NCBI GenBank assembly: GCA_029573015.1
Contig: JAKQHK010000067.1
Coordinates: forward strand, 1 to 14,032
Direction: 5' to 3'
Length of the DNA: 14,032 nt
Source: a bacterium
Lineage (GTDB): Bacteria > Patescibacteriota > CG2-30-54-11
Shown here: positions 1 through 14,032 of the stretch, piece after piece
Layout of the letters: each line of letters starts with the position of its first letter
Numbering within the stretch: the first letter of the stretch is position 1
Position numbers and translations under genes: made by a program
Notes under the pieces: model-generated
What the model was told of the DNA's origin: nothing
What the model saw: only the letters and a program-made list of their open reading frames with translations
Databases searched by the model: none

Positions 1-20
1 TTTAGAACACTACCGTAATC

Positions 21-41
21 CCGGGGGCGTAAGCCCCACGG
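21..41. repeat. IS left-end subterminal hairpin (GTAA tetraloop)
   Basis: CCG GGGGC GTAA GCCCC a CGG. The stem is 5+3 bp and lies upstream of tnpA. Confidence 0.55.
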
Positions 42-76
42 ATGAAGTTGATTCCAGAATCGTGTAATATGAGTTC

Positions 77-508
77 ATGAAATACAACAGACAAAGTAAC
101 GCGATATATAAGTGTGAGTACCATTTGGTGATGACGAGTAAGTATCGTCGGAAGATATTTAATGATGGGGTTATGGAGTATCTGCGGGTAAAGATGTTAG
201 AGATACGGAAGCGTTACGCGGCAGTAGAGGTACTAACAGCAAATCACGACAGGGATCATGTACATATAATGATAAGCATACCACCGAAGATGAGTGTAGG
301 GAGCGTGGTGAGGATAATCAAGAGCAATACAGCGAGGGAGTTAAAGGAGAAGTTTGAACATATACGAAAAGCCTATTGGGGTACAGAGAGTGTATGGTCG
401 GGAGGATATTTTGTCAGCACGGTGGGGATGAACGAGGAAGTGATACGAAAGTACGTTGAGCTGCAAGGGCAAGAAGATTCTGGACAAGCGAAGCTTGACC
501 TAGGCTAA
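77..508 (+). CDS. tnpA: IS200/IS605-family transposase TnpA (Y1 HUH single-strand transposase)
   Basis: The size (143 aa) is typical. It has the N-terminal 'YHLVMTSKYRRKIF' block, the HUH motif in 'DRDHVHIMISIPPK', and a C-terminal Tyr-containing helix 'EEVIRKYVELQ', which I take as the plausible catalytic Tyr. Confidence 0.9.
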   Translation: MKYNRQSNAIYKCEYHLVMTSKYRRKIFNDGVMEYLRVKMLEIRKRYAAVEVLTANHDRDHVHIMISIPPKMSVGSVVRIIKSNTARELKEKFEHIRKAYWGTESVWSGGYFVSTVGMNEEVIRKYVELQGQEDSGQAKLDLG

Positions 509-510
509 TG

Positions 511-530
511 CCGGCAGCGTAAGCTGCCGG
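511..530. repeat. IS right-end subterminal hairpin (GTAA tetraloop)
   Basis: CCGGCAGC GTAA GCTGCCGG has a perfect 8-bp stem and starts 3 nt after the tnpA stop (TAA at 506-508). It has the same loop as the left-end hairpin. Confidence 0.6.
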
Positions 531-564
531 AAGTTTACCTTTATTAATTATCGATTTGATCACG

Positions 565-1314
565 ATGACATGGAATCAATGGCGTGATTTTGTAAACAGC
601 AAATTATACGATGTCGCGTTTGTCATTTTTATTATAATCTTTTTTTCCAGCTCAACTTTTCAGGATATGCTTCCTAGAGAGCGGCATAGCATGGAGGGGT
701 TAGTCTTTACCTTCGGTTTCGTTGCATTGTATTATGCTCCCAAGTTGGTTTTGCGGAGGCTTATTCGTGAACAGCAGCGAGAAGAAGATCGGCTGGTAAA
801 TCTAGAAATGGATGCCTCAGGCGAAAAAAGGTTTACACGAGCATTAACCGATGCCGAGAAAAATCATATATATAAAGCTATGCAGCGTATTTGGGTACGC
901 GTCGCTCTGGCATTGGCAGTTGGACTGTATATCGGTTTATATGTTTTTACCAAGAGCAAAGCGAATCTTGATCCAATCCTTGCGGCATTCCTCGGAATTG
1001 TATTGGCAGGCATTGGAGTAGCGCGAGAGCTGGATAAAAATCGAAAACTCTATTTGGATTTGCGTACTGATGCAGTAATGCAGGTTGAGGGAGAATTAGT
1101 TCGGGAGATTGATTATGGTAAATATAACAAAAAATTCATTAAGTTTATTGTGCGAGGACAGGTTTTCGAAGACACGGTTACTCCTGGATTGAAGCAGGTA
1201 TATGATCAATTCGAAGAGGACGAGGCAGTCAGGATATTATTTTCTCCATATACGAAATTAGTTTACACCATCGAAAGTACCAAGAGACCTGGGATAAAAT
1301 TTGAAATGGTATAG
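565..1314 (+). CDS. Membrane protein, paralog A of a tandem pair. It has 4 predicted TM helices, a charged loop 'LIREQQREEDR' and a roughly 95-aa C-terminal soluble domain. The family is not recognised.
   Basis: This is a long ORF (the ORF track starts at TTG 556; the first ATG is at 565). Two hydrophobic pairs of helices are separated by a charged loop. Large conserved blocks are shared with the next ORF: LIRxQQRxEDR, RTDAVMQVEGELxREI, xVRGxxF and FxEDExVRI. The DNA is visibly AT-rich compared with its neighbours. Confidence 0.6.
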   Translation: MTWNQWRDFVNSKLYDVAFVIFIIIFFSSSTFQDMLPRERHSMEGLVFTFGFVALYYAPKLVLRRLIREQQREEDRLVNLEMDASGEKRFTRALTDAEKNHIYKAMQRIWVRVALALAVGLYIGLYVFTKSKANLDPILAAFLGIVLAGIGVARELDKNRKLYLDLRTDAVMQVEGELVREIDYGKYNKKFIKFIVRGQVFEDTVTPGLKQVYDQFEEDEAVRILFSPYTKLVYTIESTKRPGIKFEMV

Positions 1315-1320
1315 AATACC

Positions 1321-2091
1321 GTGTCTAATCGAAGTAATGAGCATAAACCGAATCGATTGCGCAATTTTATTAATAGCGGCTCATATGAGTTAATAGCTGC
1401 TATTATTATTTTTATAGTGGTTATCATTTTGCCACTGAGTGATTTTGGTCCTAAAATACAACGAAATCAGACAAGCCTATTATTTTTTTTCATTTTTTTA
1501 ATCGTTATTTTTATACCAAAGAATTATGTTCAATCTTTAATTCGCAAGCAGCAGCGGGCAGAAGACAGGCAGACGAATGTGAAGATTGATGCTGCGGGAG
1601 AGCCGAGATTGATCCGTGATTTGCGTGAATCTGAAAAACGATTACTTATGAAAACAAAACAGCAATTTATGCTTCAAATGGTATTATTCATGGTTGCTGC
1701 TCTGTTCTTTATTTTCTTTTTGTATCTTGAAAGTTTTAGGTTGCCTTTTTTGTTGTTATTTGTAGCATATCTTGGCATTTTTACTTTTCGAGGTATATTA
1801 AGTTATGTCGATGGATTCCGGTTGATATATTATGATCAGAGAACTGATGCGGTCATGCAAGTCGAGGGAGAATTAATTCGAGAAATCCTGAAAACCCGTC
1901 GTGGGTTAGATGTAACCTATATCGTACGGGGTGTTGCATTTACCAATTCTGTTTCCAAAAGGCTTGAAAAAATAGCCTATCGGTTTATGGAGGATGAACC
2001 CGTACGTATAGAATATGGTCCTCATTCCAAAATAATTTTTCGCATAACCAGCCTGGTTCGTTCAGGCATCAGTGAAGATTTTACGAGCTAG
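1321..2091 (+). CDS. Membrane protein, paralog B of the tandem pair. It has the same architecture as 565-1314 and probably a GTG start.
   Basis: The ORF begins with GTG at 1321, 6 nt after the stop of paralog A, and has no in-frame ATG until far downstream. It shares the motifs 'LIRKQQRAEDR', 'DQRTDAVMQVEGELIREI', 'YIVRGVAF' and 'FMEDEPVRIEYGP' with paralog A. The sequence is AT-rich. Confidence 0.6.
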   Translation: MSNRSNEHKPNRLRNFINSGSYELIAAIIIFIVVIILPLSDFGPKIQRNQTSLLFFFIFLIVIFIPKNYVQSLIRKQQRAEDRQTNVKIDAAGEPRLIRDLRESEKRLLMKTKQQFMLQMVLFMVAALFFIFFLYLESFRLPFLLLFVAYLGIFTFRGILSYVDGFRLIYYDQRTDAVMQVEGELIREILKTRRGLDVTYIVRGVAFTNSVSKRLEKIAYRFMEDEPVRIEYGPHSKIIFRITSLVRSGISEDFTS

Positions 2092-3341
2092 ACAGACAGG
2101 GATGCATGCTCGCCTGCTACCCAGCCAGTAGAAAAGGCTGCCTGCAGATTGTAGCCGCCCGTAGGGGCATCGAGGTCTAGTACTTCGCCGGCAAAATAGA
2201 GTCCTTTGACCAGGCGTGATTCCATGGTCTTGGGATTGATTTCTTGCAGACTGACACCCCCGCTGGTGATGATCGCATCTTTGAATCCGATCAGCCCGGT
2301 GATCGTACAGGGCAGCTTCCGCAGGAGCTCAAACAGTCTTTGTCGTTCCTGCCGATTAATCTGATTGCCAAGCTTGTCACGCGGTATGCCTGTCAGTTCG
2401 ACGAAGACAGGTATCAGGCTGGCTGGCAGGAGATTTTTTAGTATGCTCACAAAATACTTTTTGCCCTCCTGGTCGAAGTCGCGTTGCAGGCGGGCTTGCA
2501 GCTGGGTGTCGCTCAGCGCCGGCTTGAGATCAATATTTGCCTGCAGTGGTTCGGGCCAGTTATCCGGCGCACTGCCGTGAGACCGGAGATAGGTGGTTAT
2601 GTCCCTGCTGGCATCGAGGACAATTGGCCCGCTGATGCCGAAATGCGTGAAAAGCATCTCGCCGAATTTTGTACTGATCACCTGATTGGCAGCGCGGATG
2701 GTGAGCGCGACATTCTTGAGACCCAAGCCCTGGACATTTTTGATCCATTTCTCTGAGCAGGTCAGTGGGGTAAGAGCTGGGTAAAGATCCAGGACTCTAT
2801 GCCCGCTCTGTTCAGCAAAGGCATAACCGTCTCCGGTTGAGCCGGTGCCGGGATAACTTTTTCCACCGGTTGTTATGATGACACGGTCGGCAGATAGTTC
2901 CTTGCTGTTAATCTGGATACCGGTTACTTGTCCGTTATTATGCAGGATGTTTTCTACCCGCTGTCCATAGCGCATTTTTGCCTGGCTGGCATAGCTTGTC
3001 AGAGCATCGCGGACATCCGTGCTTTTCTGGGATACGGGAAATATGCGGCCGCCGCGTTCTGTGACCGTCTCCACGCCATGTCTTTTCAGCAGCTCAAGCA
3101 GCTCAGGCCGGAAGAACTGATGAAAAGCTCCATAGAGGAATTCGCCATGCGGCGAGTAAGCTGTGATGAATTCAGGCAAGTCGGCAGCGTTTGTGAGATT
3201 GCAGCGGCCTTTGCCGCTGATAAGTAGCTTGTAGCCGGCAATATCGTTGCGCTCATAGACGGTAACCTGAGCGCCATGTTCCAGAGCCCGTCCGGCAGCC
3301 ATAAGGCCGGCTGGACCGGCACCGATAATGCATATTTTCAT
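2088..3341 (-). CDS. HI0933/BaiN-like NAD(P)/FAD-dependent oxidoreductase (aminoacetone-oxidase-family flavoprotein)
   Basis: The N-terminal Rossmann dinucleotide motif 'MKICIIGAGPAGLMAAG...VTVYER' is present, followed by 'LISGKGRCNLTN' and C-terminal 'GLYFAGEVLDLDAPTGGYNLQAAFSTGWVAG', which are typical of the HI0933-like family. I place the start at the ATG encoding MKICIIG (3341) rather than the upstream in-frame ATG at 3389, because the GxGxxG normally sits within about 10 residues of the N-terminus. Confidence 0.85.
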   Translation of the reverse strand: MKICIIGAGPAGLMAAGRALEHGAQVTVYERNDIAGYKLLISGKGRCNLTNAADLPEFITAYSPHGEFLYGAFHQFFRPELLELLKRHGVETVTERGGRIFPVSQKSTDVRDALTSYASQAKMRYGQRVENILHNNGQVTGIQINSKELSADRVIITTGGKSYPGTGSTGDGYAFAEQSGHRVLDLYPALTPLTCSEKWIKNVQGLGLKNVALTIRAANQVISTKFGEMLFTHFGISGPIVLDASRDITTYLRSHGSAPDNWPEPLQANIDLKPALSDTQLQARLQRDFDQEGKKYFVSILKNLLPASLIPVFVELTGIPRDKLGNQINRQERQRLFELLRKLPCTITGLIGFKDAIITSGGVSLQEINPKTMESRLVKGLYFAGEVLDLDAPTGGYNLQAAFSTGWVAGEHASLSV

Positions 3342-3375
3342 AGATATACTTTCTGCGAGTACTGTTGGGAGTGCA

Positions 3376-3840
3376 TTACAGGACATCAAAGGTTACATCA
3401 GTCGCGTCAACAGGGAAAACCTGGGATGTTGCTTTCCCGATTCTGAAGAGTTCATGTCCGAGGAAATACAGGACGAATCCCTGTCTGACCTCGCCGGTTG
3501 CGTAACCGTACAAATGATAGGTGTGCATGTCCTGGTCGACTGCATAGTATACACCCGGTTTCGGCTGACTGCCTGCGAGCAGTTCATCATAGTTGTGTAA
3601 TTCCACCAAAAGTTGTTGGTCGGTAACCGCGGTACGCAATGTAGCATAGGAGGGATAGCTGTCAGCATCTTGGTACATTAGCTGCAGCAGGTCGTTGAGC
3701 TCATGCATGTCCGCGCGCACGAGCATGTCCACAGAGCCGCAGGCACAGGGAAAGTGCAGACCGTAGTCAGTACTGTGCACGCGGAGGGTGAAGAGTGCGG
3801 GCAAACAGAGGCAGAGGATAATGATGATTTTTGTTCGCAT
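3376..3840 (-). CDS. Small exported protein of unknown function (signal peptide, probable SPase I site after VHS)
   Basis: The N-terminus 'MRTKIIIILCLCLPALFTLRVHS' is a basic n-region followed by a hydrophobic core. There is no canonical lipobox. The gene sits 22 nt downstream of the radical SAM gene on the same strand. Confidence 0.6.
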   Translation of the reverse strand: MRTKIIIILCLCLPALFTLRVHSTDYGLHFPCACGSVDMLVRADMHELNDLLQLMYQDADSYPSYATLRTAVTDQQLLVELHNYDELLAGSQPKPGVYYAVDQDMHTYHLYGYATGEVRQGFVLYFLGHELFRIGKATSQVFPVDATDVTFDVL

Positions 3841-3862
3841 GGGATTTCCTGTTAATCTGAGC

Positions 3863-5209
3863 TTATTCTATGCCGTAGGCTAGTCGTCTGGCAAGCCGGC
3901 CGAGTGCGTGCATGCATCCATGATTGGCAAGCATGGATGTCAGTTTGCCGAATTTCCGATAACCGAGGTTGAAGAGCAGATAGGGCATACGTTGTCTGGG
4001 AGCCAGCGGCAGGCGTTTCCAGATATTCTTCCAGCTATAAAACTGATCATACATCCAGAGATAGCCTGTATAGAGTTCCGCAGCGGTTAGTTGATGTGGT
4101 TTAAAGACAACGTGAGCGGTATTATACTGAGACCAATTCTTATCAATGATGCGATTTTCTTTTATATAACGCTGGTACAATTTTGTTCCGGGATAGGGCG
4201 TGAGGATATGAGCAGTCATGGTTTCGATGCGATTGCGTACCAGCCAGTCCAGCGTAGCCGGGAATGTCTCCGGTGTATCGGTATCGAATCCGAAAACCAG
4301 GCTGGCGTTGATCATGATATGGCGGTCGTGGATAGCGGTGATAGTCTGTTCATAGCTGGCGACGCGGTTCTGATGCTTGTTCGCTCTGGTGAGCGCCTGC
4401 TCGTTAATGGTTTCAAAACCGATGAACAGGCTTTGGCATCCGGTTGCGGCCATACGGTCGAGCAGCTCGGGATATTTGCCGATATTGGCAGAAACCGCCG
4501 CATTCCATTTCAAGCCGAGCGGTTCGATAGCCTGCAATAATTCTTTAGTCCAGGCGGGATTTCCGATAAAGTTATCATCGATGAACATGACATGCCTAGT
4601 GGGCAACCGTTCAATTTCTGCAACAACCTGGGCAACCGGACGGGCGCGATGACCAGGATGGACATAGGAACAGCTATTGTAACAAAATTCACAGCGGAAT
4701 GGGCAGCCGCGGCTGGCACAGATGATATTGGTGTATAAATACGCTGATTGATCGATTGCTTCCCAGCGTGGTATGGGTATAGTAGCCGGATCAACAGGTC
4801 GAGATGCCGCATACCTTTTTTTCAGCTTTTTGTTCTGGCAGTCAGTCAGTATTTCTATCCAGACTGGTTCAGCTTCACCGATGCAGACGCTGTCAGCGTG
4901 CTGTTCTGCCTCATCGGGACAGGCGCTCGCATGAATGCCTCCGAGGATAACAGGTATACCGAGCTGGCGATACGCGTCGGCTATGTCATATGCCCGGTAG
5001 GCTGTATCAACAGTAACCGTGATACCAACAAGATCTGTTACAGGATGCATGCGTAAGGGTTTGCTGTTTTCGTCAGCGATGCAGACCGTATGTTGAGAAG
5101 GCGTCAGAGCAGCCAGAGTCAGCAAGGAAAGGGAGGGAGACATGTGGCGCTTATACTCGCTGTCCATGGGTCTGAGGCTCATGCGGGGTGATACCAGGGT
5201 TATATGCAT
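3863..5209 (-). CDS. B12-binding domain radical SAM protein (class B rSAM)
   Basis: An N-terminal cobalamin-binding-like domain ('VGITVTVDTAYRAYDIADAYRQLGIPVILGGIHASACPDEA') is followed by the canonical CxxxCxxC cluster in 'CASRGCPFRCEFCYN', encoded around 4676-4706 on the minus strand. The start codon overlaps the last codons of the upstream membrane-protein gene. Confidence 0.85.
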   Translation of the reverse strand: MHITLVSPRMSLRPMDSEYKRHMSPSLSLLTLAALTPSQHTVCIADENSKPLRMHPVTDLVGITVTVDTAYRAYDIADAYRQLGIPVILGGIHASACPDEAEQHADSVCIGEAEPVWIEILTDCQNKKLKKRYAASRPVDPATIPIPRWEAIDQSAYLYTNIICASRGCPFRCEFCYNSCSYVHPGHRARPVAQVVAEIERLPTRHVMFIDDNFIGNPAWTKELLQAIEPLGLKWNAAVSANIGKYPELLDRMAATGCQSLFIGFETINEQALTRANKHQNRVASYEQTITAIHDRHIMINASLVFGFDTDTPETFPATLDWLVRNRIETMTAHILTPYPGTKLYQRYIKENRIIDKNWSQYNTAHVVFKPHQLTAAELYTGYLWMYDQFYSWKNIWKRLPLAPRQRMPYLLFNLGYRKFGKLTSMLANHGCMHALGRLARRLAYGIE

Positions 5210-5775
5210 GGTTTGTCCTGTCCTGACTGCAGTAAGCGGATTAGTTCTCCTGCGAATATGGCACCCAGCAGGTTGACGAACAGATCAATCATTGTATCCC
5301 CGTAATAATGCGGTTTATCGAGGTGATACCCCAGCCGGATACTGTATTCCAGAAATTCATTGGCATTACCTATTAAGAGGACTATGCCCGCGATGAGTGC
5401 TTCCCTGAGCCAGGCTTGTTTACTTTTGACCCAGGAGAATACGAGCGGCATGACTAACACGCCAAAACAGGTCGCCCAGAGAAAGTGCTCGATGCGGTTG
5501 AGCCATAGCCAGGAATACGGCCATTTTTCAGTGAGCAGCAGGCGTTTGATCATCGATGCAGTGACCGGATATGCAAAGGCAACGCTGTAAAACAGTCTAC
5601 GAAGCGGTATGGTTATGCTTTGATCGGCGTTGGCGATAATAGTTATGCCAGCGAGTAAAAACCAGGCCGCGAGCATGCCGAACCAGAGCGGAAACAGGCT
5701 GAGAGAAAAGCCGAGCACGCTGACGGCAATAATACTAAGGGGAACAAGAATAGATCGATTCCGGGAGAGTTGCAT
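5200..5775 (-). CDS. Polytopic membrane protein, possibly VanZ-like family
   Basis: The 191-aa protein has 5-6 hydrophobic helices. Its C-terminal 'GDTMIDLFVNLLGAIFAGE' fits the D-x2-D-x3-N-x2-G-x3-G pattern I associate with VanZ-like proteins. An AAAGGAA Shine-Dalgarno lies 4 nt upstream of the ATG. It overlaps the rSAM start by about 10 nt. The family call is tentative. Confidence 0.55.
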   Translation of the reverse strand: MQLSRNRSILVPLSIIAVSVLGFSLSLFPLWFGMLAAWFLLAGITIIANADQSITIPLRRLFYSVAFAYPVTASMIKRLLLTEKWPYSWLWLNRIEHFLWATCFGVLVMPLVFSWVKSKQAWLREALIAGIVLLIGNANEFLEYSIRLGYHLDKPHYYGDTMIDLFVNLLGAIFAGELIRLLQSGQDKPCI

Positions 5776-5821
5776 GGGTTTCCTTTCGTGTTACACTGCA
5801 GATGGGGAAACGCATGAGTCC

Positions 5822-5841
5822 GGGAAAAGTAACTTTTTCCC
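5822..5841. promoter_or_regulatory. Palindrome GGGAAAA-gtaact-TTTTCCC in the divergent intergenic region between the VanZ/rSAM operon and the peptidase gene
   Basis: The 7-bp arms were read directly. It is located between the two divergent starts (5775 and about 5895) and is a candidate operator. Confidence 0.3.
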
Positions 5842-5894
5842 CGCAGGCGTGTTATCGATTAACGTGTTCTGTTCATGATATGCAGGAGATGCGA

Positions 5895-7562
5895 ATGATT
5901 GAGGCATCTGGCGCAGAAGAGAGGGACGAAACATCTGTACCCTTTGTCAGGCTACAGGGTCATGGTGTAGCAGCCGACAGGCGGATCCTGCCGCTGTTTC
6001 TGCGCGTGTTGTTGTTTGTGCTGATTTTAACCGGTTCACTCGGCGGGGCGGTTTGGCTAATACGGCATGGTATGCCGGCAGTATATGCCCGTTCTGATCT
6101 CACCTATGTGTATTATGTACCATTGTTTACGTTCTTAATGCCCTATTATGCTTATTTCGGCATCATCCTCGGACTGGTTGTGCTCGGGATAGCAGGTACG
6201 TATATCTGGGAAAGTCCGAGGCAGCGGCTGTTTCCGACCTTGCTCGGCAAGGTTGTCCTGAGCTTCATCAGTTGCCTCCTGCTGTGTGCAGCCGGTATCC
6301 GGTATGCCTGGGACCTGTCGCTTGTCTGGTACAAGCAGGAGGCACAACAGGCTGCCGAGCATATTACTGCCCAGGAAGCAGAGCTGTTTATTACTGATGC
6401 TGCAGCTATTGCTGCGGCGCTATCTGCTTCTGACCATATTCTGATTGCTTCTGGCACGCCCGAGGAATTATCTCGCCAGATCATCAGTAATGAGATTGGG
6501 AAAAACGATGAGCTGGGGACGTATTATACCCAGACATTAAGCAGCCTTGTGAATGAATTCAGTTTTCCGACGCTGTCGATTGCAGAAACAAGCCTGTTTT
6601 ACTATGACAGCGTTTTATATTTCGGCTCAGTCGAGGAAGCAGCCATGGAGCAGATCAGTGAAGAATTAGGAAGGAGGCTCGTTCAGCAATACTTCAGTGA
6701 GCATGTCATTAAGGCTGATCCTGATTTCGATATCATCGCCCAGGATGAGTATGTTGTTAAGCGCCAGCAGCAGATAGCTGAAGATCTAGCGGAGTATGAT
6801 ACCGCCATCGGGGAGGCACGGCAAACCATTATAGAAATTGAAAATGAAATTCCGATTCTGCAGCAAACCATGGGAGAAATACGCCAGGCAATCGCAGAGG
6901 ATGAGCAGTATCTGGCAGAGTACGGGTATGACATGTGGGGACGCTGGCTCGAGGAGGACCGTGCCATGCTTGGCCGCTACGAAAACCTGCTCGCCGAATA
7001 CCAGCAGGGGCTGGCAGACTGGCAACAGTACCTCGCTGACCTTGAGAATAACAGGGAGATTTTAACAGAATCCAGTCAGTGGGTGGACGTTGAATTGGGG
7101 CTGTTTACCCCGGATAACCAAATAGAAATTGTGCTGGATACAGATGATCCTCTCCCGCCTGAAGCATATCTTTCTACGCTGGTCCACGAGTATCTGCACT
7201 TTACCAGCTATGTACCGGAGGAAGATCTGGAGAATTTTTTTGAAGAAGGTCTTACAGAATACTATGCGCGTGAAATTTTGCGGAAGTCCCTGCATACCAC
7301 GGTTGAGCTCGGGTATTCGTCGGCTGTTGATATCATACAGTACATGGAACAGGATATCCCTTTTTCCGAATTTACGGAGATTTATTTTTCCAAAGATGAA
7401 GAACTACTTGCACAAACAGTCGACCAGACATACGGGACAGGATTTTATGCTACTACCCTTCCGGTATTCAAGTTGGTGCTCTACGGTGATGACGAAGCAG
7501 CGGAATCAGCTAAAGATGATCTGATCGCACGCATGGAGGGAGCACGCGAACGAACAGAGTAA
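5895..7562 (+). CDS. Membrane-anchored Peptidase_MA_2-like zinc metallopeptidase fused to a multi-TM N-terminal region and a long coiled-coil domain
   Basis: The HExxH motif is 'HEYLH' at 7185-7199, and 'EEGLTEY' (7242-7262) lies 18 residues downstream. HExxH plus 18 plus EGxxEY is the gluzincin/Peptidase_MA pattern. There are about 3-4 TM helices near the N-terminus and a heptad-rich central region with internal 'LAEY...W' repeats. I prefer the start at ATG 5895, which is preceded by AGGAG (5884-5888); the ORF track extends to 5802. Confidence 0.75.
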   Translation: MIEASGAEERDETSVPFVRLQGHGVAADRRILPLFLRVLLFVLILTGSLGGAVWLIRHGMPAVYARSDLTYVYYVPLFTFLMPYYAYFGIILGLVVLGIAGTYIWESPRQRLFPTLLGKVVLSFISCLLLCAAGIRYAWDLSLVWYKQEAQQAAEHITAQEAELFITDAAAIAAALSASDHILIASGTPEELSRQIISNEIGKNDELGTYYTQTLSSLVNEFSFPTLSIAETSLFYYDSVLYFGSVEEAAMEQISEELGRRLVQQYFSEHVIKADPDFDIIAQDEYVVKRQQQIAEDLAEYDTAIGEARQTIIEIENEIPILQQTMGEIRQAIAEDEQYLAEYGYDMWGRWLEEDRAMLGRYENLLAEYQQGLADWQQYLADLENNREILTESSQWVDVELGLFTPDNQIEIVLDTDDPLPPEAYLSTLVHEYLHFTSYVPEEDLENFFEEGLTEYYAREILRKSLHTTVELGYSSAVDIIQYMEQDIPFSEFTEIYFSKDEELLAQTVDQTYGTGFYATTLPVFKLVLYGDDEAAESAKDDLIARMEGARERTE

Positions 7563-7671
7563 GCATGTCATCCTTCGACCCTCACCAGGGCAGGATCGCT
7601 CAGGATGACTATGCTGGCATACTTTCAGCAATGCTCAGGTTATAACGTATAATGCAGAGTGACTCGGTGGA

Positions 7672-8835
7672 TTAGTTGAACGGCCAGGCGGTGACATCGC
7701 CAGTGGTGATGGGCAGCACCCCGTCCCATTTTTCAATTGCTTTGGCAGCATTTTCCAGGCGTTTGAGCTCGATAGCTTTGTCGCTGATCTGCTGTTCGCT
7801 GACCAGCTTGTTGTACTCCGCTATAGCCTGGGCTTCCAGGATGGTGACCTGCTTGGCGGTTTCCGCTTCAAGTAGTTCGCGGTCTGAGGCGGCTTTGGCC
7901 TGCTCGAGCAGGGCATCCTCCATGTCGCGACTGGAGATGGCTAATTCGGTTTCCGCGATCTGCTGGCGGAAAGCGGGTGAGATAAGAATATTTTCAATAT
8001 CCACGTCATGGACAGTGATGTAGTAGTCCTCAAGCACGTCGGCGATTTCCTTAGCTGCGGCTTTTTTGATCTCCGGCTGCTTGAGCAGGACTTCACCGAT
8101 GGGGTATTTTACAATAATATTCTTGATGACTTCGTTGGTATTCGGATTGATAATGTCCTCGGTCAGTTCGGCGATGCTCCTCACCCCGTATTCACGGTAC
8201 ATGTCATACAGTTTGGCTTCATTGAGCTGGAATTCCACATTCACCCAGAGGGTGACATCCTGGAACTCTTTGGAATCAGCAGTGATGCGTTCGACTTCCG
8301 CGGACTGGCGGGTGACATCCGCCAGGTAGATTTCCTGGGTCAGGGGCAGGTAAAAGTGGGTGCCTTCATCGAGGACTTCTTTGGTCAGGCCGCCGCCAAA
8401 GCGATCGAAGACCACGCCGCGATGGCCGGGAGGAATAGTTACCCAGAGTTTTTCGGTTGACAGATATCTGGCAATACCGCCGATCACCACGAGGATGATC
8501 AGCGTTACGATGATGCGTACTTTGTGCTTCCAGATCGCATGGAGAATCTGGCCGATCTTCTGGAAAAAGGCATTGATAAAAATGCCCAGTGCCTGTCCGA
8601 GTCCGGATACTGCCTGCCCAAGCTTGGCGGTCGAGGTGGCGAGAGTTGTTTTAGTTTCTTTTTTCTGTTCTGGTGCAGGAGCGGGTTGAGAGGGGGGAAG
8701 CGGACTAGCCTGCGGCAGGGTCATGGTTTTTTCCTTCCTGGTTAATGGAGCTAAACGCAGAAATACCTCCCGGATAATGAGTACGAGGAGGGTTATCAGC
8801 AGAATGATATAGAGATATAACAAAATCTTGTCCAT
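7672..8835 (-). CDS. SPFH/band-7 (prohibitin/HflK/HflC-like) membrane protein
   Basis: The protein has a TM helix followed by 'WVTIPPGHRGVVFDRFGGGL...EGTHFYLPLTQEIYLADVT', the typical start of an SPFH domain. It also has a C-terminal coiled coil rich in A/E/K. An alternative start is Met38 (ATG 8724-8722), which is preceded by GGAAGGA-n7 and would give a Pro-rich N-terminal tail plus a single TM, as in HflK. Confidence 0.85.
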   Translation of the reverse strand: MDKILLYLYIILLITLLVLIIREVFLRLAPLTRKEKTMTLPQASPLPPSQPAPAPEQKKETKTTLATSTAKLGQAVSGLGQALGIFINAFFQKIGQILHAIWKHKVRIIVTLIILVVIGGIARYLSTEKLWVTIPPGHRGVVFDRFGGGLTKEVLDEGTHFYLPLTQEIYLADVTRQSAEVERITADSKEFQDVTLWVNVEFQLNEAKLYDMYREYGVRSIAELTEDIINPNTNEVIKNIIVKYPIGEVLLKQPEIKKAAAKEIADVLEDYYITVHDVDIENILISPAFRQQIAETELAISSRDMEDALLEQAKAASDRELLEAETAKQVTILEAQAIAEYNKLVSEQQISDKAIELKRLENAAKAIEKWDGVLPITTGDVTAWPFN

Positions 8836-9106
8836 CCAGCCTGCCGAATGTTAAAGGTATATCAGTATAGCAGGCGATGGTCAGTCAAAACAAGTATCCT
8901 TTGGGATATCTTGCTTTTGGCTGTGGTTGGGATATTTTACCTCATACGATCGGTAACCGGTTTGGCATACTCCTGCGCTAGGGCATGTTTTGGATATGGT
9001 TGGTCTGCTCGCCTCCAGCAGGCGGGCATGCGAAAGGGTGCGGTTTGCCATGCGGTGGTAGACGAGACTGAGGGTGCAGTTGGAGGGGAACATCTTTTTT
9101 TGAGTC

Positions 9107-9134
9107 TAGAATTTAGAATATAGAATTCAGAATG
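9107..9134. repeat. Four tandem heptamers: TAGAATT TAGAATA TAGAATT CAGAATG
   Basis: A direct read of 9107-9134 gives a 7-bp period with a conserved AGAAT core. The repeat sits immediately after a T7 run at 9095-9101. Confidence 0.6.
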
Positions 9135-9176
9135 GTTACGGCGTACATCTAATAAGTAATACGAATGAGAGGTGCG

Positions 9177-9200
9177 TTTGTTACAACGTGTAGTAACAAA
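9177..9200. repeat. Perfect palindrome TTTGTTAC-N8-GTAACAAA
   Basis: The 8-bp arms are 9177-9184 and 9193-9200, with loop 'aacgtgta'. It abuts the terminator hairpin of the TfoX_C gene. Confidence 0.6.
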
Positions 9201-9224
9201 AAAGCAGCGCGAAAGTAACGCTGC
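9194..9224 (-). terminator. Probable Rho-independent terminator for the minus-strand gene 9254-9532
   Basis: The minus strand reads GCAGCG-ttactttcg-CGCTGC (stem 9204-9209 / 9219-9224) followed by TTTTTTGTT. It lies 30 nt downstream of the gene's stop. Confidence 0.5.
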
Positions 9225-9253
9225 AATAAAAGTGTATACGTGCTATTCCTGTT

Positions 9254-9532
9254 TTAGCACTTATTTTTCCAGGTGTGGTCAGGATAGAGTCTGTCGAATT
9301 CCTTGGCTGCCTGGGCGTGAATCGTGTTCCACTTCACGCCATGGTGAGCGCCGACGATGCTCGCTAGGGCGCAGCGGCAGAGGGAGGGATCAACTTTTTC
9401 TGTAAGCTCATGAAAGATTTCGTAGGGGTCGCGCGCCAGAAACTGTTCGCGATCGGTGATACCGATCTTGTTAAGGGTTGCGGCGATTTTCGGACCAATA
9501 TTGGGGAGTGATTCAAGTGATGATTTGGGCAT
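9254..9532 (-). CDS. Stand-alone TfoX/Sxy C-terminal (helix-hairpin-helix) domain protein
   Basis: 'LESLPNIGPKIAATLNKIGITDREQFLARDPYEIF' and 'CALASIVGAHHGVKWNTI' match the TfoX_C signature (LPNIGpks...G, then lyaLeGAl.g..W). The protein is 92 aa. Confidence 0.6.
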   Translation of the reverse strand: MPKSSLESLPNIGPKIAATLNKIGITDREQFLARDPYEIFHELTEKVDPSLCRCALASIVGAHHGVKWNTIHAQAAKEFDRLYPDHTWKNKC

Positions 9533-9586
9533 GATACTTTTTTCCGATAATGATATAGACTGACAGCCTGCGGTTTGTCTGCCCGT

Positions 9587-10126
9587 CTAGCCGATCCAGT
9601 CCGTGCTGACAAGTTTGCCTTGCGGTCCGAAGGTCAGGGTGTGGAGCAGGCCTCCGAGCGTCAGTACAAACTGCTGTCCAAGGGCGGTGATCTGGTAGGA
9701 GCGCGATTTTTGTTCCACCAGCCCTGCATGTTCAAGCTCCCGTAGATGGTAATACAGTGCTCCGCCTTCCATCCCGGTTGCTCCAGCCAGGCTGGTGGCG
9801 GTGGCGGTTCGGGTGTGCATGAGGGCTTTGAGCATTTCCAGCCGCTGGCGGTGGGCGGCTGAGGAGAGGAGTAGTTCCCAGAGGTCGGGATTGATGCCGC
9901 TTACAAAGGTGTCTCCCGGTTTGTCAGCGCGCGATACAAGCAGGGAGGACCAGGCTTGTGGTTCGCTTTCCGTGGTTTGCCGGTAGGCGCCGGCGCTGTA
10001 GACGATGGTATCGCCGGGTTCAGTCAGGGCGCGATTCCACTCCCGAATGAGGGGCGGTGGTTTTTGTTTACCCTTACCGGAGATTTTTTCGGTGAGGGGG
10101 CCGAAAATCGGTTTACTGGCTGACAT
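9587..10126 (-). CDS. Transcriptional regulator with a C-terminal ArsR/SmtB-like winged HTH and an unrecognised N-terminal domain
   Basis: 'LEMLKALMHTRTATATSLAGATGMEGGALYYHLRELEHAGLVE' fits the ArsR-type wHTH. I place the start at ATG 10126-10124 because AGGAGG lies 5 nt upstream; this gives MSASKP... The ORF track's longer start (10141) lacks an SD. Confidence 0.7.
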   Translation of the reverse strand: MSASKPIFGPLTEKISGKGKQKPPPLIREWNRALTEPGDTIVYSAGAYRQTTESEPQAWSSLLVSRADKPGDTFVSGINPDLWELLLSSAAHRQRLEMLKALMHTRTATATSLAGATGMEGGALYYHLRELEHAGLVEQKSRSYQITALGQQFVLTLGGLLHTLTFGPQGKLVSTDWIG

Positions 10127-10160
10127 GGTATCCTCCTGCATTAATTATGCTTACACTACA

Positions 10161-10188
10161 ATTATACAATAATTTGTAGATTTGTAAA
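10161..10188 (-). promoter_or_regulatory. Sigma70-like promoter for the ArsR-like regulator: TTTACA-16-TATAAT on the minus strand
   Basis: The minus strand reads TTTACA (complement of 10183-10188), a 16-nt spacer, then TATAAT (complement of 10161-10166). This is about 35 nt upstream of the AGGAGG-ATG. Confidence 0.5.
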
Positions 10189-10221
10189 TATATAATAACT
10201 GTACGATGGCTAAAACGGGTT

Positions 10222-10249
10222 TTTACATTTCAGATCTTTGGGATACAAT
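10222..10249 (+). promoter_or_regulatory. Sigma70-like promoter for nadA: TTTACA-16-TACAAT
   Basis: TTTACA is at 10222-10227, the spacer is 16 nt, and TACAAT is at 10244-10249. An AAAGG SD lies 6 nt before ATG 10279. Confidence 0.5.
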
Positions 10250-10278
10250 AGAGCACGCATCTTAAACAAAGGCATGTC

Positions 10279-11184
10279 ATGTCGGAGATCGTGGAACAGA
10301 TCCAAAAGCTTAAAAAGCAACGCAATGCCGTCATCCTCGGCCATAATTACCAGCTTCCGGAAGTGCAGGATATAGCTGATTTTGTCGGTGATTCCTTGGG
10401 ACTCAGTTTGAAAGCGCATGAAACGTCGGCAAGCGTGATCGTCTTTTGCGGCGTACGCTTCATGGCGGAAACAGCTGCGATCATCAGCCCGGATAAAACA
10501 GTACTTCTACCGGACGCGCAGGCAGGCTGTCCACTGGCTGAGATGATCAGTGTGGCTGAACTCCGTGAGCTCAAGGCGGCGCATCCGGGGGTGCCGGTGG
10601 TTTGCTATATCAATACCAATGCTGACGTCAAAGCAGAGTGCGACCTGTGCTGCACCTCGGCAAACGCCCTGGAAATTGTGGAATCGCTCGAGAGCGAGGA
10701 GGTAATCTTCGTGCCTGACAAATATCTGGGCAGTTATGTGCAGGAGAAGACCAAAAAACACTTGATTCTCGGTAAAGGCTTCTGCCCGACGCATCAGGTT
10801 TTTACGGTCGAAGAGATTGCTGCCCTAAAGGCTGAGTATCCGGGAGCGTTGTTTATGATACATCCGGAGACCAATCCAGATCTACGCGCTGTAGCTGATT
10901 ATGTTGGCGGGACTGGAGGCATGCGGGTGTTTGCCCGCAACAATCCAGGACCTTTTATCGTAGGGACTGAAGTCGGCATGCTCCATCGGCTGGAGCAGGA
11001 AAATCCGGGCAAGCTGTTTGTCCCGGCTTCCGAGCGCGCCGTCTGTCCGAACATGAAAAAAATCACCCTTGAAAAGGTGCTCTGGGCACTTGAGGACATG
11101 CAGCCGGTGATCACCGTCGAGGAGCCAACTGCTTCGCTGGCGCGGCGGTCGATTGAACGGATGCTGGCGATTAATACTCAATAG
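10279..11184 (+). CDS. nadA: Quinolinate synthase NadA
   Basis: The 301-aa protein begins with 'AVILGHNYQ'. It has 'CPLAEMI', 'ADVKAECDLCCTS', 'GKGFCPTHQ' and 'AVCPNMKKITLEKV', which are the conserved Cys ligands of the NadA [4Fe-4S] cluster and the family blocks. Confidence 0.9.
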   Translation: MSEIVEQIQKLKKQRNAVILGHNYQLPEVQDIADFVGDSLGLSLKAHETSASVIVFCGVRFMAETAAIISPDKTVLLPDAQAGCPLAEMISVAELRELKAAHPGVPVVCYINTNADVKAECDLCCTSANALEIVESLESEEVIFVPDKYLGSYVQEKTKKHLILGKGFCPTHQVFTVEEIAALKAEYPGALFMIHPETNPDLRAVADYVGGTGGMRVFARNNPGPFIVGTEVGMLHRLEQENPGKLFVPASERAVCPNMKKITLEKVLWALEDMQPVITVEEPTASLARRSIERMLAINTQ

Positions 11185-11281
11185 CTTAGAGCTATGAGCA
11201 TTGAGCTCGGATGGTGTTTAGTAAAAAATACTACTCCCTCTTAGGCGGCTATCCAACAATATTTTATAAATCGAATGTATT

Positions 11282-11620
11282 ATGAGTCTACCTTTAGTTG
11301 CCGTTATCGTTACGCAGTTACTCTATACATCATGCGATTTGCTCGCGAGAGCAAACATGCCAAAACAAGGTTTTACCCTGGCATCATTTCTGAGCGGGTG
11401 GTTTCTCCTGTATTTTGCGATCAGGACTGTCGCCATGTTTGGCCAGTTGTATGTATTTACGACGATCGAACTCGGGAAAACCATGGCGCTTTTCGGGGCT
11501 GTATCCATCGTGCTTTCAAATCTGGTCGGCTTCCTGGTTCTGAAAGAAGTCCTGAGTCCGGGAGCCTATATCGGAGTTACGTTTGCAGTGATTGGCTTTA
11601 TCGTATTAGCGTTGGCATGA
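11282..11620 (+). CDS. Small 4-TM membrane protein (SMR/DMT-like size and topology)
   Basis: The 112-aa protein has four hydrophobic helices and a charged residue (D19) in TM1. The overlapping alternative frame, 11275-11658, translates to low-complexity R/C/Y-rich sequence and is less protein-like. Confidence 0.5.
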   Translation: MSLPLVAVIVTQLLYTSCDLLARANMPKQGFTLASFLSGWFLLYFAIRTVAMFGQLYVFTTIELGKTMALFGAVSIVLSNLVGFLVLKEVLSPGAYIGVTFAVIGFIVLALA

Positions 11621-11660
11621 TACTCCTGATTGTATTTCACTACTTACTATCAGAATAGCT

Positions 11661-12281
11661 ATGAGTATACTCCTCGAAGCGCAGAAGGCACTGGAAGCGA
11701 ATAATTTTACCTGTATTGTTTTTGCTAACCGTGAGGAAGCGAAGACATGGATTTTACAGCAGATACCACCCGGAAGCACGATCGGGACCGGTGGATCCAT
11801 GACCATAGAAAAAGACCTCAACCTTCATTCGGATCTAGACCAAATCGGCACATTCCTCTCCCCTTACCGGGCTGGTCTTTCTGCCGAGGCAGCGCAGGAG
11901 ATCCGCAAGCAGTCATTCTGGGTTGATTATTATCTCACGAGCAGCAATGCGATCACACTTGAGGGTGAACTCGTTAATACCGACGGATCGGGTAACCGCA
12001 TCGCAAGCATAGCCTTGCAGTTCGGGCCGGCGCGCGTGTTCGTGGTCGTTGGTCGCAATAAAATCGTCGCAGACCGGGCTGCGGCCTTCGAACGCATACG
12101 CACCATTGCCGCTCCGCTTAATGTCAAACGACTGCGCCGCCAAACCGGATGCGATCAGACCGGCTTCTGCATAGACTGCAAATCTCCGGACCGGATTTGT
12201 GCCAACACCTTGATCACCTGCTGGCAGAAAGACCGGAACCGGATAACGGTTGTTCTGATCGACGAAGATTTGGGCTTCTAA
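11661..12281 (+). CDS. LUD-domain (DUF162, LutC/YkgG-like) protein
   Basis: 'TIGTGGSMTIEK', 'SSNAITLEGELVNTDGSGNR', 'VFVVVGRNKIV' and the C-terminal 'VVLIDEDLGF' match my recollection of the LUD domain core. Confidence 0.6.
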   Translation: MSILLEAQKALEANNFTCIVFANREEAKTWILQQIPPGSTIGTGGSMTIEKDLNLHSDLDQIGTFLSPYRAGLSAEAAQEIRKQSFWVDYYLTSSNAITLEGELVNTDGSGNRIASIALQFGPARVFVVVGRNKIVADRAAAFERIRTIAAPLNVKRLRRQTGCDQTGFCIDCKSPDRICANTLITCWQKDRNRITVVLIDEDLGF

Positions 12282-12518
12282 CTGCGTTAGCCAGGAGTCC
12301 TGAGTCATAAGTCGCTTGTCCGCTGAACCCTGAGGGCAACCGAAGGGGAAGGCGAATGAGCCGTGTAACTTTAGACAAGTGCTCGGGGTAGGTGTATGGT
12401 GCAAGCAATAACAATTCGTAACAATGATTAACCAGCTATAACGATAGGCTCACTTGATTCGTATGACACCATTTCGGATTACTAATTATACTGTTTAACA
12501 ATAAGTGAGTCATAGAGT

Positions 12519-12785
12519 ATGTCAGAAATCGAAGAATTGGAGAAACGCATCAGAGCGATCGAGGAACGCAATCAGCGGGTCGAGCGGGATAAAGCCTGGG
12601 AAACCAGCCTGATGCGCCGTGTGCTGGTAGCTGGTCTTACCTACGGAATCGTAGTGCTTTTTTTCTTCATCATCCGGACAGAGCAGCCATTGCTGAACGC
12701 GCTTGTGCCAACTCTGGGATTTCTGCTCTCAACGCTGACCTTGGACGCGATGAAGAAAGCCTGGTTACGCAGGAATAATGCATAA
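12519..12785 (+). CDS. Small protein with an N-terminal coiled-coil segment and 2 TM helices
   Basis: The 88-aa protein begins 'MSEIEELEKRIRAIEERNQRVERDK', followed by two hydrophobic stretches. It ends 5 nt from the stop of the convergent gene. Confidence 0.45.
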   Translation: MSEIEELEKRIRAIEERNQRVERDKAWETSLMRRVLVAGLTYGIVVLFFFIIRTEQPLLNALVPTLGFLLSTLTLDAMKKAWLRRNNA

Positions 12786-12790
12786 CCAGA

Positions 12791-13903
12791 TCAGACTGGC
12801 TGATGTGCCGCTTGATATTTGCGGATTATCCAGTACAGGATGAGACCTGCATAACAGCTTGCGCCGATGAGAAGCGGGATGAGCATCCAGGGCTGCGTTG
12901 CTTGTTCTACGCGGTTAAATATCGTGTTGATAATGGTTATCAGATACTCGAGTACTTCTGTGGGAGTGTCAGAAGTCAGTTCCTGTATCAGCGTATCACT
13001 GACAGTGGTATGCAGCCACTGCAGCGCCAGACGCATGCCAAGAAAATTAAGTCCAAGCAGGAATAAACTGGTCCCAATCCAGCGCAGCAGGGAGGGGAGG
13101 GAGTGGAGCGTAATCGCGAGCATGAGAGACAGGAGACCAATTACGATGATCAGCCAGATGCGCTCGCCGACTGAGACGTACCCATAGACTGAACGCACAT
13201 CCTGCAAACCGGTAACCAGTTCCTGATATGCCTTTGTATCAGAAGAGCCTGTTTTCACTTCCGGTATTTTTCCTTCAGGCACATTAAAGTCTTCCATGAT
13301 CGTACCGTCGATAATTTTTTTCAGGCTGATTTTATCAGGTAATACCTGCGTGAAATTATCCAGGAACCCGTATCCCTCCGGACCGAGGAATTGCTCGAGA
13401 CTCATGCCCTCGGGTACGCAGTCAAACGTCACCTTGCCGGTTTCCTGCATGCGGATCAGCTCGCTCATGGTGCAGAACGGCAGCGCTGCCTGTTTGCGTT
13501 CCAGCGTGGATTTCACCAGTTCTGCAAACGTGTCACGCTGTGAGCTGATGTCCACCACGATATCAAATTCCGGTTCATCGCTATCAAGCCAGGATGAAAG
13601 GTCACTGACAGCCCGGTCAATCTGGTCGTAGAACCATGAGGTCGGAAAGGCTTCGTATACAAGTGATTCGATCTCATCGTTCGAGAAGAGCAGAGGAGAA
13701 TCTTCCAGCTTGAATTCTTCCTGTTCCTGCTTCAAAGCGGTGAAGGCTTCCTCGTATCCGAGCTCGATTATGCCTGAGTTTCGGAATTCGTCGGCATAGT
13801 ACTGCAGGTCGAGCAGGGAATTTTTCAGGATAATCAGCACGCCTCCGGCAGTAGTCAGGAGGATGAAGCTGGTCAGCAGGAGGAAGAGGAAGAATTTACG
13901 CAT
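12791..13903 (-). CDS. Membrane protein of unknown function. It has an N-terminal signal anchor, an acidic extracytoplasmic domain of about 230 aa, and 3-4 C-terminal TM helices.
   Basis: The ORF is 370 aa. 'MRKFFLFLLLTSFILLTTAGGVLIIL' is a signal or anchor. The C-terminal third is hydrophobic ('IWLIIVIGLLSLMLAITL', 'LFLLGLNFLGMRLALQWL', 'MLIPLLIGASCYAGLILYWII'). Confidence 0.65.
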   Translation of the reverse strand: MRKFFLFLLLTSFILLTTAGGVLIILKNSLLDLQYYADEFRNSGIIELGYEEAFTALKQEQEEFKLEDSPLLFSNDEIESLVYEAFPTSWFYDQIDRAVSDLSSWLDSDEPEFDIVVDISSQRDTFAELVKSTLERKQAALPFCTMSELIRMQETGKVTFDCVPEGMSLEQFLGPEGYGFLDNFTQVLPDKISLKKIIDGTIMEDFNVPEGKIPEVKTGSSDTKAYQELVTGLQDVRSVYGYVSVGERIWLIIVIGLLSLMLAITLHSLPSLLRWIGTSLFLLGLNFLGMRLALQWLHTTVSDTLIQELTSDTPTEVLEYLITIINTIFNRVEQATQPWMLIPLLIGASCYAGLILYWIIRKYQAAHQPV

Positions 13904-13911
13904 CTTGTTTA

Positions 13912-13973
13912 GACATTAGAGATGAGACATTAGTTGTACAGTTGTATGACATTATTAACACCCCAGAGGGTGT
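13912..13973. promoter_or_regulatory. Upstream region of the minus-strand gene 12791-13903. It holds three GACATTA direct repeats (13912-13918, 13926-13932, 13948-13954), TTGTA-cag-TTGTA, and the palindrome ACACCC-CAGA-GGGTGT (13958-13973).
   Basis: All motifs were read directly from the sequence. They lie 9-70 nt upstream of the ATG at 13903. Confidence 0.3.
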
Positions 13974-14032
13974 AGCACGTTAACAAACCAAAAAAGCATA
14001 CGGTAGGATATTCCTGCTTTATATATCCAATT

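Follow-up and report, generated by a model that had tools for sequence, protein, structure and literature searches.

The window analysed here is the whole 14,032-nucleotide contig JAKQHK010000067.1 (assembly GCA_029573015.1, from a bacterium of the Patescibacteriota lineage CG2-30-54-11). It opens with a complete insertion sequence (IS) of the IS200 type, followed on the same strand by two adjacent paralogous membrane-protein genes, referred to as parA and parB. The reading that we favour, with moderate confidence, is that the IS and the gene pair are two independent features which lie side by side by chance; the pair was probably acquired, already duplicated, from a donor of lower guanine plus cytosine (GC) content, and the IS would have come later. 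The truly atypical DNA is that of the two paralog genes, parB above all, and the IS200 lies outside it, since the third-position GC (GC3) of its transposase gene departs from expectation no further than that of host genes. The features of this region, including the predicted transmembrane (TM) and OB-fold segments of the proteins, are as follows.

1–538, + strand: complete insertion sequence of the IS200 type, 538 bp, TTTAGAACAC...AAGTTTAC; its left end coincides with window position 1
21–41, + strand: left-end subterminal hairpin, CCGGGGGC gtaa GCCCC(A)CGG, with A38 bulged, as read from the sequence
77–508, + strand: tnpA, Y1 (HUH) transposase, 143 aa, recognized by Pfam and NCBIfam models, with host-like codon usage
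511–530, + strand: right-end subterminal hairpin, CCGGCAGC gtaa GCTGCCGG, a perfect 8-bp inverted repeat with a 4-nt loop
539–564, + strand: spacer from the IS end to the parA start codon, 26 nt, too short for a promoter
565–1314, + strand: parA, 249 aa; TM1-TM2, charged linker, TM3-TM4 and predicted C-terminal OB-fold domain; GC about 40.5%, GC3 39%
754–888, + strand: conserved charged linker of parA, residues 64–108, IREQQReEDR..DAsGEkRftRaLt..E, including the β-strand at 89–92
1069–1311, + strand: predicted C-terminal OB-fold domain of parA, residues 169–249
1321–2091, + strand: parB, 256 aa, same architecture as parA; the most AT-rich gene, GC about 36.3%, GC3 33%
1846–2088, + strand: predicted C-terminal OB-fold domain of parB, placed by alignment to parA (C-terminal hidden Markov model (HMM), E 3e-23)
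2088–2091, unstranded: CTAG, the overlapping convergent stops of parB (+) and the flavoprotein gene (−), at the right edge of the AT-rich block
2088–3389, − strand: HI0933-like flavoprotein gene (Pfam HI0933_like, E 1e-81); GC 53%, GC3 58%

Base composition of the window

A preliminary description, made by eye from the letters alone, had taken the IS together with the pair to be one AT-rich segment abutting GC-richer chromosome. Computation bears this out for the two paralog genes and not for the IS200, which is only mildly AT-rich and has host-like codons. GC is 38.4% at positions 565–2091, 50.6% at 2092–14032 and 44.5% at 1–564, the whole window standing at 49.0%. Elsewhere in the sequence, windows of the same length (1527 bp) have a mean GC of 50.5% with a standard deviation of 1.0 and a minimum of 48.1%, against which the deficit of 565–2091, about 12 points, amounts to about 12 standard deviations; the preliminary description had anticipated a figure more than 10 points below the flanks. 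GC3 tells the same story, at 39% for parA and 33% for parB against 52–66% for the twelve other genes. The shift in composition had been placed by eye at the shared stop, and a likelihood-based search for change points locates the right edge of the low-GC block close by, at 2040–2047, no more than 50 bp from the CTAG at 2088–2091. The flavoprotein gene beyond it is the first gene of normal composition and serves as context outside the AT-rich block. The left edge is inseparable from the IS on raw GC, the best low-GC segment being 43–2040.

Amino acid content was separated from codon choice by recoding every protein with codon frequencies drawn from the twelve host genes, which were themselves scored leave-one-out.

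parA: expected GC 48.5%, observed 40.6%, GC3 residual −18 points
parB: expected GC 46.9%, observed 36.2%, GC3 residual −26 points
tnpA (IS200): expected GC 46.9%, observed 44.4%, GC3 residual −4.6 points
12 host genes, leave-one-out: GC3 residuals −8.5 to +7.4 points

Amino acid content accounts for only 2–4 of the 12–14 GC points missing from the pair, and the parA/parB anomaly sits in synonymous sites; the mild AT-richness of the IS200 is caused by the amino acid content of TnpA. A comparison of Shine-Dalgarno sequences does not discriminate foreign from host genes here, as most host genes also lack one. Taken as composition alone, an AT-rich gene pair beside an IS is a routine finding.

The IS200 element

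The TnpA protein matches Pfam Y1_Tnp at E 6.4e-34 (117 bits, cut-off 23) and the NCBIfam equivalog transpos_IS200 at E 4e-36 (124 bits, cut-off 55), and the hairpins at the two ends are alike, sharing a GTAA loop and a CCGG..GC stem design. A single tnpA, subterminal hairpins at both ends instead of terminal inverted repeats, small size and multiple identical copies at intergenic insertion sites are all traits shared with the IS200 group of the IS200/IS605 family; no long inverted repeats were found in 1–2600. Classical IS200 is roughly 700 bp long, whereas the window element has 538 bp; the group inserts 3′ of a short specific target and does not duplicate it, and in three left flanks no conserved target tetranucleotide is evident. 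It is an ordinary but unusually compact IS200.

Its limits are set by further copies. Six other contigs (L108–L113), found through a look-up of the transposase, match window 1–538/541 at 99.8–100% identity, and as their flanks diverge immediately outside the IS on both sides, the element is exactly window 1–538. Copies were located at the following positions.

L108, 3607–4144: further IS copy
L111, 672–1209: further IS copy
L112, 10–547: further IS copy

Three different right flanks are seen, namely parA in the window, a cheW gene in L108 and a Pyr_redox-like gene in L111/L112, together with at least three different left flanks, ending TTCCA, ATAAT and CTGTA, in which no obvious common motif is apparent. 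The element is multi-copy and has been recently active in this genome or community; a search of plasmid DNA with the IS sequence gave no match. Four further assemblies of the same locus are 100% identical to the window (one 99.99%), and all four break within the IS, at window 398–484, because repeats do that to assemblers. Contigs L111 and L112 share the right flank of the IS and have different left flanks, which means either that the assembly is chimeric across the repeat or that strains differ in their IS copies, and the L111 copy stands immediately after the terminator hairpin of cheD.

The ATG of parA at 565 lies 34 nt past the right-end hairpin and 26 nt past the right end of the IS, and no promoter-like site was found within 539–564. 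In L111/L112 the IS right end is likewise followed by the start of another co-oriented gene, at 27 nt. A delimited, active 538-bp IS200 whose right end is followed at two sites, after 26–27 nt, by a co-oriented gene makes a tidy case in which to study how such an insertion may rewire the genes downstream.

The gene pair

Both paralogs are intact genes that retain the conserved motifs of their family; the N-terminus of ParA from the ATG at 565 aligns with that of the homologue P0002, and the GTG start of parB at 1321 preserves a conserved N-terminal NRLRNFIN motif. Hydropathy analysis finds four hydrophobic segments in each protein. ParA and ParB are 36% identical over 242 residues (BLASTP, E 2e-39), somewhat above the roughly 30% first estimated by eye, and their paralogy is genuine. 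P0002, P0004 and P0005 belong to one clade with them, within which pairwise identities are 28–35%; the two window proteins are as distant from each other as from the homologues in other genomes, which dates the duplication back to the split of the carrier genomes, in agreement with the old tandem duplication that had been suspected.

At the DNA level the genes share only one extended stretch of similarity, 59 nt that are 78% identical and cover the conserved YxDxRTDAVMQVEGEL motif. Gene conversion was considered for this stretch and rejected, as about half of its synonymous sites differ when compared by eye. Each paralog departs from the VEYSP motif at a single position that is almost invariant in the family: residue 225 of ParA (window 1237–1239) is Leu in place of the Glu found in at least 90% of members, and the ParB residue aligned to ParA 227 (window 2023–2025) is Gly in place of the Ser found in at least 90%. 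One departure per paralog may amount to complementary divergence.

The protein family and its loci elsewhere

No Pfam or NCBIfam family includes either protein. When 5.8 billion proteins were searched by word index, P0002 was the sole homologue returned. When 1.84 billion cluster representatives were scanned exhaustively with a profile, 59 proteins matched at E≤1e-3, 18 of them at E≤1e-10; the family is visible only by profile search, as the word-index searches gave almost nothing beyond the query. The expectation of an uncharacterized membrane-protein family is upheld, with four hydrophobic helices in each window protein and the lack of any Pfam or NCBIfam model. Viral structures (BFVD), PHROGs and PADLOC gave no meaningful match, and nothing in them points to a phage or defence role.

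Family members are mostly 190–280 aa long. The common plan in their alignment is one or two hydrophobic helices at the N-terminus, then a charged linker, and lastly a domain of about 85 aa, which a second TM hairpin usually precedes. The linker consensus is EExxESLxEGGIEEPRxxRxLTxEE; the ParA-type linker is invariant within its clade, and R92, L94 and E98 are nearly invariant in the 47 family members. The domain starts Y-x-D-L-R-S-P-V-F-x-V-Q-G and ends V-E-Y-S-P-x-T-K-x-V-W, with D165 and G176 invariant. The family occurs as 2-TM and 4-TM forms side by side in L044, where two of three adjacent copies (5372–5950 and 6786–7355) lack the second TM hairpin and the linker leads straight into the OB domain.

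Seven other family loci were examined, with copy number and, for some, GC content as follows.

L001: single copy, convergent with panB; family gene 49.6% GC, neighbours 56–58%
L046–49: single copy, convergent with groEL, with overlapping stop codons
L050: single copy; family gene 47.5% GC, neighbours 56%
L105: single copy
L106 (Patescibacteria group bacterium): single copy
L044/L045: three copies in a row; family genes 35–38% GC, neighbours 41–44% (L044)
L103: two copies flanking a short SUFBD_core gene; family genes 32% and 37.5% GC, neighbours 42–45%
L114: two copies in a row

Family genes fall below the GC of their neighbours in L001, L044, L050, L103, L105 and L106. When GC3 is compared with the neighbours' codon usage, the residual is negative for six of eight family genes, typically −6 to −11 with one at −19.5, and near 0 for the other two. 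Adjacent copies and AT-rich-leaning coding are family traits, of which the window pair is the extreme case.

In the main clade, family genes abut a SufD-like (SUFBD_core) gene of 173–192 aa (L044 4793–7355, L103 467–2376, L114 3536–5414), with a spacing that ranges from an 8-nt overlap to direct abutment. The wider neighbourhood of the multi-copy loci is one of suf and iron-sulphur (Fe-S) genes, with SufB, SufC, SufS, NifU, ferredoxin, flavodoxin-like and Rieske proteins. Conservation of the suf neighbourhood in three independent contigs suggests a functional link to Fe-S cluster assembly, and this linkage in other lineages provides a lead to function for proteins otherwise annotated as hypothetical.

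Further observations concern individual loci. L044 and L114 both run on to a Flavodoxin_2 gene, and in L114 an intein bearing a LAGLIDADG homing-endonuclease domain splits the SufB gene (15–2528). Some 60 nt ahead of its start, the L001 homologue carries a promoter-like site, TTGCAA-17-TATTAT, and an AGGAG. The contig of the closest homologue P0002 also carries a Translin-family gene (PF01997; L001 2026–2613), a family that is uncommon in bacteria. Stop codons overlap with those of a convergent neighbour both in the window (2088–2091) and in L046 (6513–6516, the P0060 gene and groEL), leaving no space for terminators.

Origin of the pair

Acquisition of the pair is argued for by the synonymous-site anomaly, which lies far beyond the local host range in both genes, and by the GC3 of the pair, which falls among the values of the AT-rich genomes in which most family members occur. 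Judged on its own, the acquisition of an already duplicated pair has about an even chance of being right, perhaps slightly better. Several points weigh against it. For the flavoprotein, identity reaches 50% with the best relatives in genomes and 46% with those in metagenomes, and no relative is close enough to supply an empty site; tblastn with all window proteins and the family HMMs found no neighbours in common with the flavoprotein relatives. No tRNA, flanking direct repeat or integrase was found, nor mobility signatures of an islet enclosing the pair, there being a single IS whose ends exclude it. The right junction, with its convergent stop overlap, looks like a settled gene arrangement and not a fresh insertion scar. 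The closest homologues, P0002 and P0004, are on contigs of 50–55% GC, and as low GC is family-wide, part of the signal is intrinsic to the family. Lastly, the account of the pair given below works with a predicted structure and with a cytoplasmic topology, an oligomerization and an IS-driven transcription that we infer.

A less probable alternative that still carries real weight is that the pair is native, its AT-richness being a property of a family of hydrophobic proteins rich in Lys, Asn, Ile and Phe combined with the weak codon adaptation of poorly expressed membrane-protein genes, and that the IS merely inserted nearby. Low GC by itself overstates the evidence for horizontal transfer where a gene family is intrinsically AT-rich, and the deficits in six other loci, the six negative GC3 residuals, the lack of island hallmarks, and overlapping stops that suggest a long-settled junction and recur with groEL in L046 are all in keeping with a native pair. 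What sets the window apart is the extremity of its residuals, −18 and −26 points in both genes, of which amino acid composition covers only a small part, and two family members elsewhere show no deficit, meaning that the bias is not obligatory. A third explanation, that of the preliminary description, has the IS200 and the pair arriving or moving as one foreign unit with the pair as IS cargo. Their adjacency and common orientation would fit, as would the inclusion of the IS in the best raw low-GC segment; even so it is very unlikely. IS200/IS605 elements mobilize only the DNA between their left-end and right-end hairpins, and the IS is not the vehicle of the pair because the pair is located beyond its right-end hairpin and because copies identical to the IS, which ends exactly at 538, occur beside unrelated genes without the pair. 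The codon usage of tnpA is host-like and that of the pair is not, no second IS copy or hairpin resembling the right end was found to the right of parB within 1–2600, and in none of the seven other family loci does an IS200 adjoin a family gene. The reading of two independent features, with the pair acquired and the IS inserted later, is the one carried forward here.

Predicted structure and topology

An AlphaFold2 model of ParA, built from the 47-sequence family alignment, has a pLDDT of 91.9 and a pTM of 0.83, and consists of four long helices, a short linker strand at 89–92 and a β-rich domain at 171–247. In the model this C-terminal domain is a five-stranded closed β-barrel with a helix between strands 3 and 4, the arrangement that defines an OB fold; the domain is thus predicted to be an OB fold. 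Among the 23 members with four predicted TM helices, Lys and Arg average 14.1 in the N-terminus plus linker and 1.6 in the two short loops, and because positive charge concentrates in the former, the positive-inside rule predicts that the linker and OB domain are cytoplasmic, in an N-in/C-in topology.

The preliminary description had instead compared the C-terminal part of about 95 aa with bacterial PH domains (bPH_2, as in YdbS/YdbT), in which a TM hairpin is likewise followed by a small, β-rich cytoplasmic domain. The similarity of plan is superficial, and such an assignment is extremely unlikely: the predicted fold is OB and not PH, there is no PH domain among the top 60 matches, and bPH_2 (PF03703) was matched neither by whole window proteins at E≤0.1 nor by 37 isolated C-terminal domains at E≤10. 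A sequence search of the PDB with the family profile returned only TM-helix noise (E>0.2).

A closer resemblance is to DUF4131 (PF13567), the N-terminal module of ComEC, in which a TM helix pair precedes an OB fold (PMC5031224), as the TM3-TM4 hairpin directly precedes the OB-fold domain in the window proteins. Weak DUF4131 matches covering TM3-TM4-OB were obtained for 6 of the 47 family members (best E 4.2e-6), and ParA and ParB score 15.0 and 16.0 bits (E 0.01–0.02), under the gathering score of 31.6. The window proteins differ in having no competence or metallo-beta-lactamase domains and in possessing an extra N-terminal TM hairpin and the conserved charged linker; the predicted side of the membrane differs as well, the OB domain being placed in the cytoplasm by the positive-inside rule, whereas the ComEC N-loop is extracellular (PMC5031224). 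DUF2500/YhhM (PDB 3q6c) and PDB 3rd4 are also small membrane-anchored OB-like domains, with a sequence identity of 8–15%; their TM architecture differs from that of the window proteins, and there is no Pfam DUF2500 match even at E≤10. A membrane anchor with a C-terminal OB domain is shared with NfeD-type proteins, the partners of SPFH/flotillin proteins, and the window does contain an SPFH gene, at 7672–8835. An NfeD-SPFH pairing was rejected, as this gene is 5.6 kb away on the opposite strand and no Pfam NfeD (PF01957) match was found.

The sequence family of the gene pair has not been described before; its predicted fold is a known one and its layout, a membrane anchor plus an OB domain, is familiar. 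The pair together with the IS is a curiosity of modest interest and no novel kind of system. What has been exposed is a very rare family lacking a Pfam or NCBIfam model, with a confident predicted structure and recurrent adjacent paralogs.

Possible mode of action

The IS200 would have inserted 26 nt upstream of parA and in the same orientation, into the upstream region of the pair. This would have cut the pair off from its earlier promoter, and transcription would now probably start inside the IS or come from tnpA read-through. As mentioned, ParA and ParB each are predicted to have two TM hairpins with the charged linker between them and a C-terminal OB domain, which may be held against the membrane-proximal linker, as the short β-strand lies beside the OB domain in the model. 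The working form is most likely a membrane-anchored homo- or hetero-oligomer of adjacent paralogs, a proposal made because adjacent copies recur in unrelated genomes, and the role proposed for the OB domains is to bind, at the membrane, a partner or ligand from the cytoplasm; in the main clade this partner is probably linked to the abutting short SufD-like protein.

A more specific proposal, which we regard as speculative and rather improbable, is that the family consists of membrane-anchored, cytoplasm-facing OB-fold hetero-oligomers which in the main clade, in Patescibacteria-like genomes, are translationally coupled to a truncated SufD-like gene and tether or regulate Fe-S assembly at the membrane. 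The window pair would then be a transferred offshoot without that context.

Other genes in the window

No RNA family was detected in the window with Rfam. Three open reading frames, at 3376–3840 (154 aa), 5802–7562 (586 aa) and 12791–13903 (370 aa), belong to no Pfam or NCBIfam family. The 586-aa protein, for which only faint SMC/spectrin-type matches were obtained, has TM segments and a long coiled-coil-like region.

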